From: an uncultured Hyphomicrobiales bacterium
GTDB lineage: Bacteria > Pseudomonadota > Alphaproteobacteria > Rhizobiales > Beijerinckiaceae
Direction of reading: 5' to 3'
Length of the DNA stretch: 64,000 bases
Assembly: GCA_903861645.1 (NCBI GenBank)
Contig: CAIOVE010000065.1
Location: 138 to 64,137, forward strand
Shown: piece by piece, positions 35,968 through 39,530 of the stretch
How the letters are laid out: every line of letters starts with the position of its first letter
Position numbering within the stretch: position 1 is the stretch's first letter
Notes under the pieces: model-generated
Told to the model about the DNA's origin: nothing
Database searches by the model: none
What the model saw: the letters and a program-made list of their open reading frames with translations, nothing else
Made by a program: the position numbers and the translations under genes

Positions 35968-36579
35968 ATGAGCAACGCGTCGCCCAACGATCGTCCGGAG
36001 ACCTATTCCGCCGCCTCCAAGTGGCTGCACTGGCTCATCGCCGGTCTTGTGCTCGTCGCCCTGCCCATGGGCGTCATTCTCGACAAATTGCCGGAAGGGC
36101 CCTTGCAGGATCGGCTTTTCGACCTGCATCGGTCGCTCGGCGTGCTCGTTCTGGCGCTGGCCGTCTTGCGCGTCGCCGCGCGCTGGACATTTGGCGCGCC
36201 CGCGCCGGCGGCGAGCCTGACGCCTTTCGAGCGGGCCGCGTCCGCCGCCGCCCATCATTCCCTGCTGCTGTTGCTTTTCCTGCAACCCATCGTCGGCTGG
36301 CTGTCGATGGACGCCTACCGCGCCGATGTATCGGTCTTCGGCCTGTTCACATTGCCGCATCTGCTGCCGCAAGGCGACGCCGCCTACAAACTGTTGTCGG
36401 GCGCGCACACCGTTCTCGGCTATCTCATGGCGCTGATCCTCGTCGCGCATATCGGCGGCGGCTTGCTGCACGGCTTCGTCAAGCGCGACGGCGTGCTCAA
36501 CCGAATGTTGCCGGCCAACTGGGGACGATCTCTCGATCAGTCGGCGGGACCGGCGGGCAAGGCGAAAAGGTCCGAGTGA
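35968..36579 (+). CDS. Cytochrome b561 family protein
   Basis: KWLHWLIA, LHRSLG, AHHSL, AHIGGGLLH heme histidines. Confidence 0.9.
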   Translation: MSNASPNDRPETYSAASKWLHWLIAGLVLVALPMGVILDKLPEGPLQDRLFDLHRSLGVLVLALAVLRVAARWTFGAPAPAASLTPFERAASAAAHHSLLLLLFLQPIVGWLSMDAYRADVSVFGLFTLPHLLPQGDAAYKLLSGAHTVLGYLMALILVAHIGGGLLHGFVKRDGVLNRMLPANWGRSLDQSAGPAGKAKRSE

Positions 36580-37391
36580 CCGATCACGCAGGCCTCGGCG
36601 GCGCGTCTCGACGCGCGCCACGCCTCGACATCGTCCGGCGCGACCAGTCTTGTTTCCGCCACCGCCGCCGCCGCGCCATCGGCGAGCGCGGCGATAAGCC
36701 GGGCGTCATCCGTGCCAAGGCGCCACGGGCTTTCGCCCACATGCATGTCCCAGCCAAGCTCCTCGAAGGCGGCGCGCAGCAGCGTCGGCGCGTCGGGCCC
36801 GGCGGCGGGGCCAAACCCCTTGTCGCCGCCCTGATGCACGTGGAACGCCTCCAGCATGGCGGCGTCCGCCGCATGCGGCGGGGTCCAGCGCTCGACGCCG
36901 TTATAGGTGAGCGCGGCGTAAAGCGGCAGGTTGCGCAAGGCCAGCGCGCCGATAAAGCGATCAAGCCAGGGCGCGGAAACCAGATCGAACAGGGCGGCGG
37001 CCGTGACGAGATCGCAGCCCGCGTCGAGCAACGCCTCCATGTCGCTCGACAGGTCCGCGCAATGGAGGGCGACCTCGACGACCTTGCCGTCCTTTTCCAG
37101 CGTTACGCCGCCCCCTGCGTCGAGGCGATGCGCGTCGGCCCAACGGATCAGCGCCTCGCGGGCCGCGTCGAGCAGCGCGGCGTCGTTGTCGACCAATCGC
37201 CAGCGCTGCCGCGCGCCCAGACGCGGCGCCAGCGCCCGCAAATTCGAGCCGGACCCGCAACCGAGATCGACGATCTCCGGCAGCGCGAGGCGGGCCAAAT
37301 GCGCGACCACGCGCGTCAGGGTCGCCGGATCGCGGGCGCGATGGTCGGCTGGTTCGCGCAACGCCAGCCAGTCGGCGGAAAATCCGGTCAT
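36537..37391 (-). CDS. Class I SAM-dependent methyltransferase
   Basis: MTGFSADWLALREPAD, VDLGCGSGSN; ATG overlaps GT4 stop (ATGA). Confidence 0.85.
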   Translation of the reverse strand: MTGFSADWLALREPADHRARDPATLTRVVAHLARLALPEIVDLGCGSGSNLRALAPRLGARQRWRLVDNDAALLDAAREALIRWADAHRLDAGGGVTLEKDGKVVEVALHCADLSSDMEALLDAGCDLVTAAALFDLVSAPWLDRFIGALALRNLPLYAALTYNGVERWTPPHAADAAMLEAFHVHQGGDKGFGPAAGPDAPTLLRAAFEELGWDMHVGESPWRLGTDDARLIAALADGAAAAVAETRLVAPDDVEAWRASRRAAEACVIGHSDLFALPAGPAD

Positions 37392-38449
37392 TTCCGCTCC
37401 TTGGCGACCCGGTCGAGAACGCCGAGCACGGTGATGGCGCAATCCCGCCAGCGTGGCAGGGACTGTCCGGCCCGCCACGAATTCTCCGCCAGGCGCTGAC
37501 GCAACGGCTCCTCGGAAATGACCCGCGACAAAGCCTCGGCGAGGGCGGGGGCGTCGCCGGGCGGGACTTTCAGGCCGGCGGAATCCGGCACCGTGCGCGC
37601 CGCCGCCCCGCCCGTGGTCGCGACGATGGGCAGGCCGCGCGCCATGGCCTCGGAGAGGGCCATGCCATAGCCCTCGTAATGCGAGGACAGCGCGAAGACA
37701 TCGGCGCGGTCGTATTCGGCGGCGAGTTCTTCCGCGCTTTTTTCGCCGACCAGCGCCACCCGGTCGGCAAGACCGTTTTCGGCGATCTGGGCGCGCAGGG
37801 CGGCGACGGTGTCGGTCGCCCGATCCAGGGCGCCCACCAGCCGCAATCGCCAGTTCAGATCCTTCAGGTCGGCGAGCGCGCGCACCAGCACGTCGAACCC
37901 CTTGCGCGGCACGATGGCTCCGACGGCGAGCAGGACGATCGCCGGCCCGCCCGAGCCGCGCGCGCGCCGGGCCGCGTCGACGCCCGGTTCGGCGACGGTG
38001 ATCCTGGCCGCGGGGACCGCGAAATCCGCGGCTAGGGTCTCTCCCGTCGTTTCGCTGGTGACGATGACCGCGTCCACCCGCGCCAGCGCGGCGCGCTCTG
38101 TATTGACGAGTCTTTCGGCCGTCGCGGGATCAAGCCCGGCCTCCAGCCCCAGCGGGTGATGCACGAGCGCGACGATGGGGTTTTCGATGGTCGCCAGTCC
38201 CGCCGCCGGCAGGGCGCCGTGGGCAAGGCCGTCGATGAGCAACACCGTGTCCTTGTCGACCGCGCGCAACAGCGCGAGGGTCTCCTCGACGTCGCCGGGC
38301 GTGGGTAGCGGGAAAGAGCCCGGCAACCGCAGATAGTCCAACCGGGCGCCGAGCGCCTCCGCCTCGGCCATCACGCGCCGGTCGTAGCCATAACCGCCGG
38401 TCAGTGTCGAAAGATCGCCAGGAATGGCGAAGCAGGCGCGTGCATACAT
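37388..38449 (-). CDS. Glycosyltransferase family 4
   Basis: FAIPGDL..LTGGYGYD, PRKGFDVL, YEGYGMALSEAMARGLP. Confidence 0.92.
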   Translation of the reverse strand: MYARACFAIPGDLSTLTGGYGYDRRVMAEAEALGARLDYLRLPGSFPLPTPGDVEETLALLRAVDKDTVLLIDGLAHGALPAAGLATIENPIVALVHHPLGLEAGLDPATAERLVNTERAALARVDAVIVTSETTGETLAADFAVPAARITVAEPGVDAARRARGSGGPAIVLLAVGAIVPRKGFDVLVRALADLKDLNWRLRLVGALDRATDTVAALRAQIAENGLADRVALVGEKSAEELAAEYDRADVFALSSHYEGYGMALSEAMARGLPIVATTGGAAARTVPDSAGLKVPPGDAPALAEALSRVISEEPLRQRLAENSWRAGQSLPRWRDCAITVLGVLDRVAKERK

Positions 38450-38510
38450 GCGATGTGTCCCAAGCCCGCCCATCGGGTAACAGCGCGACCGCGCGCGATC
38501 AACCCGATCG

Positions 38511-38525
38511 GTTCATCGACCGTTC
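38511..38525. promoter_or_regulatory. Alphaproteobacterial LexA box candidate
   Basis: Exact GTTC-atcgacc-GTTC in intergenic DNA. Confidence 0.45.
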
Positions 38526-38545
38526 AGCCGGATCGGTCTAGCTTC

Positions 38546-38560
38546 TTAACAGGTCGTTAA
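38546..38560. promoter_or_regulatory. CtrA box
   Basis: Exact TTAA-caggtcg-TTAA ending 38 nt upstream of the ATG at 38598. Confidence 0.75.
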
Positions 38561-38597
38561 TCCGGGCGCGGGCGCGCCGCGATTGGAGGACAGTCCG

Positions 38598-39116
38598 ATG
38601 CGTTTGAAATCAGGCATGAAATCGATCGTTTTGGCGGTGGCGCTCTGCTTTTCGGCGGTCGCGCTGACAGGCGGCGACGCCGAGGCGAGGGCGCGCGGCG
38701 GCGGCGGTGGCGGTGGCGGAGCGCCCCGTGGCTTCGCCGCTCCACGCATGTCCGCTCCACGCATGTCCGCGCCGCGCTTCGTCGCGCCCCGCGCGATGGC
38801 GCCGCGTTACATGGCGCCGCGGATTGTCCGAGGCGGCGCGGGCGCCATTCGCGCGCCGGGCATGCGCTATGTCACCCCGCCTCGCTATGTCGCGCCCCGC
38901 GGGGCGGCGCCCAGATACGCCGTTGGCGCGGGCGCGGGACGCGCCTATCCGCGCTTCCTTGGCCATGCGCGGCGCCATTTCTGGCGCGGGCGGTGGCTCT
39001 GGGTCGGCGTGCCGCTGGCGGCCTACGCCTATGATCCCTGCTGGACGCGCGTGTGGACCGACTGGGGATGGGGCTGGTTCTACGCCTGCGGCTACGATCC
39101 CGATTACGGCTACTGA
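38598..39116 (+). CDS. Secreted Gly/Arg-rich protein with APRxx repeats and Trp/Tyr/Cys tail
   Basis: GGAGGA RBS, signal peptide ending AEA-R, poly-Gly, APRxx repeats, C-terminal CWTRVWTDWGWGWFYAC. Confidence 0.75.
   Translation: MRLKSGMKSIVLAVALCFSAVALTGGDAEARARGGGGGGGGAPRGFAAPRMSAPRMSAPRFVAPRAMAPRYMAPRIVRGGAGAIRAPGMRYVTPPRYVAPRGAAPRYAVGAGAGRAYPRFLGHARRHFWRGRWLWVGVPLAAYAYDPCWTRVWTDWGWGWFYACGYDPDYGY
38738..38827 (+). repeat. 15-bp tandem repeat encoding APRxx pentapeptides
   Basis: CGCTCCACGCATGTC twice exactly, followed by four degenerate copies. Confidence 0.85.
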
Positions 39117-39125
39117 GAGAGCCGC

Positions 39126-39530
39126 TCAGGCCGCCACGTCGCCCTCGTACCACGCGCGGGCGACGTGCGATTCGTGTAGGGTGACGCGGATTTTCGCGAC
39201 TCCCTCGCCGCCCGGTCCCAGCGCGCCGTTTCGCGCCGCCGCCGCCATGGCGTCGAAAATGTGCTTCGAAAGGAATTCGGTGGTCGTCTGCTTGCCCGCG
39301 AAGGCCTCGACGTCGTCGAGATTGCGATAGTTCAGCGGCCCCAGCACGCCCTTCAGCGCGTCATGCGCGCGCCCGATGTCGACCACGACGCCATCGGCGG
39401 TCAGTTCGTGGCGAAAGAACGCCACGTCAACGACGAATGTCGCGCCGTGCAACCGCTGCGCCGGCCCGAACAGCTCGCCCTTGAAACTATGGGCGATCAT
39501 GATGTGTTCACGCACTTCGATGGCGAACAT
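39126..39530 (-). CDS. QueD/6-pyruvoyl-tetrahydropterin synthase-like T-fold protein (divergent)
   Basis: [34 protein letters not shown]. Confidence 0.85.

Follow-up and report, generated by a model that had tools for sequence, protein, structure and literature searches.

The window analyzed here is a stretch of 64,000 nucleotides from an uncultured Hyphomicrobiales bacterium. The locus of interest within it comprises the following features:

35968-36579, plus strand: cytochrome b561 (PF01292, E = 1.4e-23)
36537-37391, minus strand: class I SAM-dependent methyltransferase, 284 aa (PF13649, E = 7e-7)
37388-38473, minus strand: GT4 glycosyltransferase (GT-B, retaining type), 361 aa (PF00534, E = 3.5e-33; PF13439, E = 2.8e-11), with an alternative start at 38449
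38474-38582, no strand: divergent spacer between the GT4 gene and the APR-repeat ORF, the presumed promoter region of the GT4-methyltransferase pair
38583-39116, plus strand: ORF of a putative secreted Gly-/APR-repeat protein with a signal-peptide-like N-terminus, a Gly run and APR-type repeats
39126-39530, minus strand: T-fold protein of the PTPS-IV (SCO6650) type, 134 aa (PF01242, E = 8e-22), monocistronic here

As the first-pass annotation had it, the genes of the PTPS-fold protein, GT4 and the methyltransferase are all located on the minus strand at these coordinates. The coupling that it claimed for the last two is also found: the GT4 stop and the methyltransferase start share the tetranucleotide ATGA, and an AAGGAG Shine-Dalgarno sequence lies just 5' of the methyltransferase start. 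By this reading of the sequence, the methyltransferase is translationally coupled to GT4. The PTPS-IV and GT4 genes are, however, split by the plus-strand APR-repeat ORF, which is convergent with the former and divergent from the latter, and the trio is not one operon in this genome. The distance from PTPS-IV to the methyltransferase is 1.74 kb, compared to about 1.05-1.1 kb in the relatives. The APR-repeat ORF had no Pfam or NCBIfam match in a profile search and lies outside the conserved module; in the nearest relative (G018), the corresponding spacer has only a weak match to it, at the C-terminus. The GT4/APR spacer contains GTTC-N7-GTTC at 38511-38525 and TTAA-N7-TTAA at 38546-38560, and a consensus scan of 38474-38582 gave no sigma-70-like site.

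The T-fold protein had been described as QueD-like, with AQRLHGAT in place of the canonical metal-binding and catalytic motif and with a presumably different chemistry. Residues 24-31 do read so, and the stretch of E. coli QueD opposite AQRLHGA is CGRLHGH. In the alignment, QueD Cys27 is replaced by Ala24, His33 by Ala30 and the Asp70/His71 pair by Asn/Tyr; His16 (His14 here), His31 (His28) and Glu110 (Glu120) are kept. Two of the three zinc His ligands (H14 and H28) are thus retained. The roles of the QueD zinc ligands and Cys are set out in PMC9894224. The protein scores 36.3 bits with the QueD model TIGR03367, well under its cut-off of 89.25. The loss of the Cys, of the Asp-His pair and of one zinc His, together with this score, bears out the expectation of a different chemistry, and judged by these residues the protein cannot carry out that of QueD.

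What did not survive is the notion that the family is unrecognized. The sequence FGPAQ, which occupies residues 21-25, is the named signature of subfamily PTPS-IV of COG0720 (PMC5445326), and by its motifs the window protein belongs to this subfamily and not to QueD. A solved homologue exists as well: over residues 1-129, the protein matches S. coelicolor SCO6650 (PDB 3D7J, E = 2.9e-45), deposited as 'uncharacterized'. F21, G22 and A24 do not vary among 25 cluster representatives, and P23 hardly does; further invariant residues are H14, H28, D51, D72, E85 and E120. The structure paper of SCO6650 reportedly describes no bound zinc and no catalysis of the PTPS reaction. The gene of a GCH II paralogue, SCO6655, is located in the vicinity of SCO6650.

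The GT4 protein combines an N-terminal Glyco_transf_4 and a C-terminal Glycos_transf_1 domain. Its nearest solved relatives in a PDB sequence search were a sucrose-phosphate-synthase-like protein (6KIH), MshA and PimB', and the search returned no BGluT chains at E ≤ 1e-6. The sucrose-phosphate-synthase-like protein and MshA use small phosphorylated acceptors. The model of the methyltransferase (pLDDT 95.7) has a class I methyltransferase fold, for which Foldseek found many class I methyltransferases with a probability of 1.0, all of them generic small-molecule types with TM ≤ 0.6. The family motifs are WLxLREPxDxxAR, DLGxGxG, HQxxDKGFG and GHxDL; motif I reads DLGCGSGS, with G46 and G48 invariant. 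Neither the GT4 fold nor the methyltransferase fold indicates the acceptor.

We compared the locus with 80 named loci from Alpha-, Beta- and Gammaproteobacteria and Acidobacteriota. These are the closest relatives of the query, and the counts are hence biased towards Alphaproteobacteria; the denominators vary with the available flank. The usual order in these genomes, across several phyla, is MDR dehydrogenase-like gene, PTPS-IV, GT4 and methyltransferase, and in L002-L011 these four genes adjoin one another. GT4 is found directly downstream of PTPS-IV in 63 of 68 named loci, the methyltransferase is in place in 58 of 68, and the MDR gene lies upstream of PTPS-IV in 62 of 69. The three window genes, whose co-occurrence in other bacteria the first-pass annotation had stated, are contiguous in all 10 relatives that were fetched and in 55 of the 68 named loci with enough flank, an association that is far beyond chance. 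A RibD_C paralogue occurs within 10 kb in 43 of 59 named loci, and GCH II is near in 21 of 59. Cytochrome b561 is a common neighbor of the cluster, though not a constant one. In the window, its gene is convergent with that of the methyltransferase, the two 3' ends overlapping by 43 bp; the two genes are adjacent in 6 of 10 relatives, and 26 of 59 named loci have cytochrome b561 within 10 kb.

Phylogenetic profiling covered 61 relatives. PTPS-IV, the methyltransferase and MDR occur together in families f1 (36/36), f2, f15, f20 and f23, and the combination was not found in most other families of this set. The RibD_C paralogue, detected in 38 of the 61 genomes, tracks the presence pattern of PTPS-IV, and it was absent at E 1e-20 from one complete relative (G058) that has MDR, PTPS-IV, GT4 and the methyltransferase. 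Altogether, the cluster is present in at least 596 sequenced species of several phyla and in about 6% of the sampled Pseudomonadota. Of the partners that had been proposed, GCH II and a RibD-like protein do co-occur with the trio, and so does an MDR protein, but the latter has no zinc ligands and is not the zinc dehydrogenase that had been expected.

These partners are missing from the window, as had been stated, and were found elsewhere in the genome. Contig C4 carries the MDR gene together with an OpgH unit, and contig C85 carries a long RibA and the RibD_C paralogue. PTPS-IV is linked to GT4 and the methyltransferase alone, and the gene set is divided over at least three places. Several genomes of the same genus have a split cluster too; as every gene has been kept in them, the whole set appears to be under selection. 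The C85 RibA scores above the NF006456 cut-off and has its zinc Cys ligands and Tyr105 intact; in the RibBA on C75 the Cys ligands are lost. The C85 protein is probably also the housekeeping GCH II, in which case its linkage to the cluster could partly reflect riboflavin metabolism. The RibD_C paralogue is a stand-alone protein with no deaminase domain, and it falls under every NCBIfam cut-off. In an alignment, the C4 MDR protein has SRGTE and G-Y at the expected Cys and GHE positions and keeps the nucleotide site GAGVVG; its ADH_zinc_N score is 29 bits against a cut-off of 31.8. A zinc-dependent alcohol/polyol dehydrogenase was considered for this protein and ruled out, as the catalytic zinc ligands are not present.

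On balance, we favor the explanation that the trio constitutes the T-fold and tailoring part of the PTPS-IV (SCO6650-type) cluster, which would define a pathway derived from GCH II. From GTP, the cluster probably produces a methylated pterin- or pyrimidine-like compound that bears a sugar. We infer the substrate and the order of steps as follows. The long RibA on C85 would open GTP to 2,5-diamino-6-ribosylamino-4(3H)-pyrimidinone 5'-phosphate, the ribosyl chain of which would be reduced to ribityl by the RibD_C paralogue. The zinc-less MDR-type NAD(P) oxidoreductase on C4 and PTPS-IV, predicted to be zinc-less too, would then remodel the RibD_C product, one option being that a side-chain hydroxyl is oxidized and a ring then closed. 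The Glu residue kept in PTPS-IV would serve as the anchor of 2-amino-4-oxopyrimidine rings. Finally, GT4 may attach a sugar from a nucleotide sugar, and the coupled methyltransferase may methylate the product; that the product of the T-fold protein is both glycosylated and methylated is plausible from the gene order. Counting against this pathway are the minority share of loci with GCH II nearby (21 of 59) and the relative G058, with no RibD_C paralogue at E 1e-20.

A different role for the cluster is suggested by the surroundings of the MDR gene, which lie outside the window and whose tie to the cluster the first-pass annotation had missed. In 45 of 60 named loci, an OpgH paralogue is oriented divergently from MDR, and in our genome it still adjoins MDR on C4 (NF003963, 913 bits; cut-off, 884). 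Its neighbor encodes a protein of about 300 aa with a signal peptide and no Pfam match at the sequence level. In a structure comparison, this protein resembled OpgG (Z 13.9, rmsd 3.4, 214 aligned residues) and OpgD (Z 13.4), with the next best match at 7.5, and Foldseek also assigned it to the OpgG/OpgD fold (E = 4e-4). The gene that comes after it encodes an HGSNAT/DUF1624 acyltransferase. A second, separate OpgH paralogue, with an adjacent 559-aa gene, is found on C58. The whole cluster might accordingly decorate or prime a periplasmic beta-1,2-glucan, with GT4 and the methyltransferase acting on the glucan or its primer. The GTP-derived compound would be its substituent or cap; the OpgH paralogue would export it, and its handling would fall to the short OpgG-like protein and the DUF1624 acyltransferase. 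However, the OpgH unit is missing from gammaproteobacterial and acidobacterial loci (L084, L086, L092 and L062) that all retain MDR, PTPS-IV, GT4 and the methyltransferase, and a divergent adjacency can mean shared regulation only. We know of no description of a glucan substituent of this kind, and we regard such a role as rather improbable.

We give a similarly low weight to a true pterin pathway via GTP cyclohydrolase I, in which 7,8-dihydroneopterin triphosphate, or a compound close to it, would be the substrate of PTPS-IV. GT4 and the methyltransferase would then produce a methylated pterin glycoside, comparable to cyanobacterial pteridine glycosides or the proposed 2'-O-methylmonapterin, and RibA and RibD_C would be mere neighbors. 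FolE and FolB are indeed encoded in this genome, and the pterin-anchoring Glu is retained in PTPS-IV. Bacteria are also known to have pterin glycosides and methylated monapterin, both summarized in a review that names no methyltransferase for the latter (PMC13259868). Furthermore, a published network analysis (AGeNNT) reported FolE2, not RibA, near PTPS-IV genes (PMC5445326), so that dihydroneopterin triphosphate may be the starting point in some lineages. In the loci that we examined, on the other hand, the linked GTP-opening enzyme is GCH II, accompanied by the dedicated RibD_C paralogue, which mirrors the presence of PTPS-IV across genomes. The reported lack of PTPS activity in SCO6650 also speaks against this pathway.

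It is very doubtful that PTPS-IV is the missing QueD (CPH4 synthase) of the organism. Such a role would explain why the genome encodes QueC (230 bits) and Tgt (503 bits) while a search for a separate canonical queD, as the first-pass annotation had suggested, gave none: the window protein is the sole PF01242 match of the whole genome. However, a model that picks up QueE in 9 control genomes did not find it in this genome either, and the de novo queuosine route is hence two steps short. QueC is located on another contig, adjoining nuo genes, and PTPS-IV follows the MDR, GT4 and methyltransferase genes rather than que genes. Relatives G050, G037, G013, G022 and G032 keep PTPS-IV beside a canonical QueD, and the replaced residues and low TIGR03367 score described above point in the same direction. 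A function in cofactor F420 biosynthesis, for which there is an unpublished statement by Zallot et al. 2016 (PMC5041015), is less credible still, as a search of this genome, 100% complete by marker genes, gave neither CofD (TIGR01819) nor CofH (TIGR03551), and the conserved glycosyltransferase, methyltransferase and MDR partners are foreign to the known F420 pathway. As neither canonical queD and queE nor F420 genes were detected, both roles are unlikely.

Returning to the GCH II-derived pathway, our best inference for its product is a 2-amino-4-oxopyrimidine or pterin glycoside, possibly tied to a periplasmic glucan. We also entertain, as an unlikely extension, that this GTP-derived, glycosylated and methylated compound, which would be new to the literature, is passed to a second, dedicated OpgH/OpgG-like system, where it would serve as primer, cap or substituent of periplasmic beta-1,2-glucan, and that cytochrome b561 couples it to the membrane redox chain. 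If so, the cell would possess a glucan-tethered or periplasmic redox-active or signaling heterocycle.

The window trio is a further case of a widespread and already recognized orphan cluster; within the pterin-synthase family, PTPS-IV has been an orphan ever since SCO6650 was solved. Our analysis adds that the gene set is retained in full even where its members are dispersed in the genome, that in these bacteria it relies on a GTP cyclohydrolase II that is probably the only active one of the cell, and that Alpha- and Betaproteobacteria have it coupled to a compact second OpgH/OpgG-like glucan unit. Knowing the compound would close a gap in GTP-derived metabolism and might bear on periplasmic pterin signaling or envelope glucan chemistry.

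Among known systems, SCO6650 is the closest. It matches the window protein over the full length, shares with it the motifs IAHS, FGPAQxLHGAT, VVDIG, NLD, TTTE and ESH, and has likewise lost the QueD/PTPS Cys and third His; the window protein differs in being alphaproteobacterial and in having its partners scattered over several contigs. E. coli QueD has in common with it the T-fold (PF01242), the first and second zinc His and the pterin-anchoring Glu110, but the two are only about 25% identical and the window gene has no link to queC or queE. The cyanobacterial pteridine glycoside pathway (BGluT/PgtA) resembles the proposed route in that a GTP-derived pterin is produced with a PTPS-fold enzyme before a nucleotide-sugar GT-B enzyme glycosylates it. 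Its PTPS, however, is of the canonical zinc/Cys type and is supplied by GCH I, and no RibA, RibD_C, MDR or methyltransferase partners have been described for it. With the early riboflavin pathway the cluster shares GCH II and a RibD_C-type pyrimidine reductase, whereas it has no lumazine or riboflavin synthase, and it differs from that pathway and its toxoflavin-type offshoots by the additional T-fold protein, MDR, GT4 and methyltransferase. The C4 unit, finally, is similar to the OpgG/OpgH system (E. coli; Xanthomonas OpgD) in having an OpgH above the cut-off and a secreted neighbor with the OpgG/OpgD N-terminal fold, but its OpgG-like protein is about 300 rather than about 500 aa long and it is separate from the OpgH copy on C58.

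The genes at 36537-39530 of the window are real, but they make an unremarkable addition to an orphan cluster that is already known. On the best-supported account, the window carries the T-fold gene and the tailoring genes of the PTPS-IV cluster, PTPS-IV being the subfamily of COG0720 typified by S. coelicolor SCO6650. Interest in the locus is moderate: no product has yet been assigned to this pathway. This analysis adds the scattered arrangement of the gene set, an apparent reliance on a single active GTP cyclohydrolase II (GCH II) and the OpgG-like fold of a neighbour protein. 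The first-pass annotation described the QueD-like, GT4 and methyltransferase genes as co-oriented, and all three indeed lie on the minus strand.

Genes in and around the trio
35968-36579, plus strand: cytochrome b561, converging on the methyltransferase gene
36537-37391, minus strand: class I SAM methyltransferase, 284 aa (PF13649)
37388-38473, minus strand: GT4 glycosyltransferase, 361 aa (PF00534, E 3.5e-33, and PF13439)
38583-39116, plus strand: APR ORF, putative secreted protein (signal-peptide-like N-terminus, glycine run, APR-type repeats, Trp/Tyr-rich C-terminus)
39126-39530, minus strand: PTPS-fold protein, 134 aa (PF01242, E 8e-22)

The stop codon of GT4 and the start codon of the methyltransferase share an ATGA, and an AAGGAG lies just 5' of this start, which makes the annotated translational coupling of the two genes credible. 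The trio is not one unit in this genome: the APR ORF splits PTPS-IV from GT4, and its stop codon is 9 bp from that of PTPS-IV. This ORF has no family match, and the same, enlarged PTPS-IV/GT4 spacer of the nearest relative (G018) shows only a weak C-terminal match to it. It appears to be an insertion between the two genes, of which the G018 match would be a remnant. The methyltransferase and cytochrome b561 genes run towards each other and share 43 bp at their 3' ends (36537-36579). Within the 109 bp that separate GT4 from the APR ORF, GTTC-N7-GTTC (38511-38525), LexA-like in its letters only, stands beside TTAA-N7-TTAA (38546-38560), likewise CtrA-like in its letters only. A scan for sigma-70 promoters and terminators gave uninformative output, and no riboswitch or other Rfam element was found near the cluster genes in eight loci totalling 143 kb.

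The reported divergence of the T-fold protein from the QueD motif was borne out. In an alignment to E. coli QueD (K-12 record), Cys27 is replaced by Ala24, His33 by Ala30 and Asp70/His71 by Asn/Tyr, and His16, His31 and Glu110 are retained. In the E. coli enzyme, both histidines of the Cx3HGH motif and the N-terminal histidine bind zinc, and the cysteine is catalytic (PMC9894224). The window protein scores 36 bits with the QueD model, the cut-off of which is 89. It matches SCO6650 (PDB 3D7J, deposited as uncharacterized) over the full length with an E of 2.9e-45, and it contains FGPAQ, the PTPS-IV signature (PMC5445326). Sixteen positions (A13, H14, S15, F21, G22, A24, H28, G29, T31, D51, L71, D72, T84, E85, E120 and A124) are invariant in 25 representatives of 50%-identity clusters, which marks the family as tightly conserved and, to judge from these residues, possessed of an active site of its own. 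The T-fold protein is thus a PTPS-IV and not a QueD. According to its structure paper, SCO6650 is said to have neither bound zinc nor PTPS activity. No informative PTPS-IV domain fusion was found among the tandem triplications and one RNase_T fusion, the latter a possible artefact, that we saw. Six proteins of the representative library (P0131, P0144, P0145, P0150, P0179 and P0205; 373-855 aa) carry three tandem PTPS-IV-like domains per chain, and two of them have about 400 further residues without a Pfam match.

In all of the 10 fetched relatives, PTPS-IV, GT4 and the methyltransferase follow one another in this order without interruption. To identify recurrent neighbours, ORF calls were clustered and then searched against Pfam and NCBIfam; the trio does co-occur with the GCH II, RibD-like and dehydrogenase-like genes named in the first-pass annotation.

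Recurrent neighbours of PTPS-IV, counted at loci with enough flank among the best 80, these being closest to the query, so that the counts lean towards Alphaproteobacteria
GT4: directly downstream, 63/68
Methyltransferase: downstream, 58/68 (together with GT4, 55/68)
MDR-type dehydrogenase-like gene: directly upstream, 62/69
OpgH (NF003963, 913 bits against a cut-off of 884): divergent, 45/60
RibD_C-only reductase: within 10 kb, 43/59
Long GCH II (NF006456, above cut-off): within 10 kb, 21/59
Cytochrome b561: within 10 kb, 26/59
300-aa protein without an assigned family: recurrent
HGSNAT/DUF1624 acyltransferase: recurrent
YfhO-like membrane protein: recurrent

When each species was represented by a single genome, an FGPAQ-type protein was found in at least 596 species. 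Alpha-, Beta- and Gammaproteobacteria and Acidobacteriota are represented among the best 80 loci of this set; two more loci are in metagenome-assembled genomes labelled Actinomycetota, a label that depends on their binning. When the phylum was sampled evenly, PTPS-IV turned up in 18 of 300 other genomes. The window genome was also compared with 61 relatives: PTPS-IV, the methyltransferase and MDR share the same families, namely 36/36 genomes of the genus and four other families of the order, and 38 of the 61 have the RibD_C paralogue.

No member of the set is missing from this genome, but the genes are dispersed. The proposed search for partner genes outside the window located MDR on contig C4, where it is divergent from OpgH, followed by a protein of the 300-aa type and then the acyltransferase. 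RibA and RibD_C form a divergent pair on C85, and the YfhO-like gene is on C79. In the nearest relatives (G018 and G011), PTPS-IV, GT4, the methyltransferase, cytochrome b561, RibD_C and RibA are still together, and several further members of the genus have MDR or RibD_C at a distance or on another contig. The cluster genes are retained whatever their linkage.

The 377-aa long RibA (C85:17394-18527) retains Cys54, Cys65, Cys67 and Tyr105, whereas the GCH II-like C-terminal domain of a RibBA fusion (C75:29834-30988) is RibBX-like and has lost the three cysteine zinc ligands, which probably leaves the former as the one active GCH II of the cell. In that case riboflavin synthesis would also draw on it, so that its linkage is weaker as evidence. 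The RibD_C paralogue has no deaminase domain, falls below every curated cut-off and has much the same score with the bacterial as with the archaeal reductase models. The expected Zn-dehydrogenase partner is present as the MDR gene, but its zinc ligands are not: the protein keeps GxGxxG and has SRGTE and G-Y at the ligand positions. Its distant relatives are polyol dehydrogenases, threonine dehydrogenases and BchC. Among solved structures, GT4 is most closely related to MshA, PimB' and a sucrose-phosphate-synthase-like protein. Fold and protein-atlas searches for the acceptor of the methyltransferase (model pLDDT 95.7) gave only generic small-molecule methyltransferases.

From the family identities, gene order and co-occurrence, which were observed, we infer the following chemistry. 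The GCH II product would enter the pathway and be reduced by RibD_C and oxidized by MDR; the T-fold step of PTPS-IV would follow, and the outcome would be a 2-amino-4-oxopyrimidine or pterin-type compound, which GT4 may glycosylate and the methyltransferase may methylate. Of the earlier proposal of a glycosylated and methylated T-fold product, the co-occurrence of the genes is confirmed, and the chemistry keeps this conditional form. A pterin route fed by GCH I instead of GCH II is a less likely alternative.

Another less likely alternative is that the cluster decorates or primes a periplasmic glucan, which would fit the link to OpgH and an OpgG-like protein. The OpgH neighbour in the unit on C4 (locus L013, whole unit C4:15920-19895) has about 300 aa, a signal peptide and no Pfam match. 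The model of this neighbour (pLDDT 83; Foldseek E 4e-4) resembles OpgG of E. coli (Z 13.9 and rmsd 3.4 over 214 residues) and, with Z 13.4, the beta-1,2-glucan-bound OpgD of Xanthomonas; the match after these two is at 7.5. A separate OpgH paralogue adjoins a 559-aa gene on C58, which suggests that the C4 OpgH, the modelled OpgG/OpgD-fold protein and the DUF1624/HGSNAT acyltransferase make up an extra, compact Opg-type system. A glucan role would not fit those gammaproteobacterial and acidobacterial PTPS-IV loci that have no such unit.

A QueD role is rejected on the residues, the model score and the absence of QueE: a model that picks up QueE in nine control genomes found none in this genome. 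PTPS-IV is the sole PF01242 match here, and a search for a separate canonical queD found none; canonical QueD is also missing in most genomes of the genus. With neither protein, the predicted de novo preQ0 route is short of two steps, and the presence of QueC (C104:10751-11497, adjoining nuo genes) and Tgt (C97:7229-8287) suggests that a 7-deazaguanine intermediate is salvaged and not made de novo. Relatives with canonical QueD retain PTPS-IV too, which makes it an unlikely replacement QueD. An F420 link of PTPS-IV, mentioned as unpublished (PMC5041015), is disfavoured by our failure to find CofD and CofH, and this role is rejected for this genome. Nor does PTPS-IV have to fill a gap in folate synthesis, as the genome has both FolE and FolB.

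For the PTPS-IV cluster, neither riboswitches nor domain fusions nor the literature indicated a product, and full-text searches on the cluster, SCO6650, SCO6655 and PTPS-IV found no functional paper. Bacterial pterin glycosides have been described, and 2'-O-methylmonapterin has been proposed in a review that names no methyltransferase for it (PMC13259868); we treat both as analogies only.
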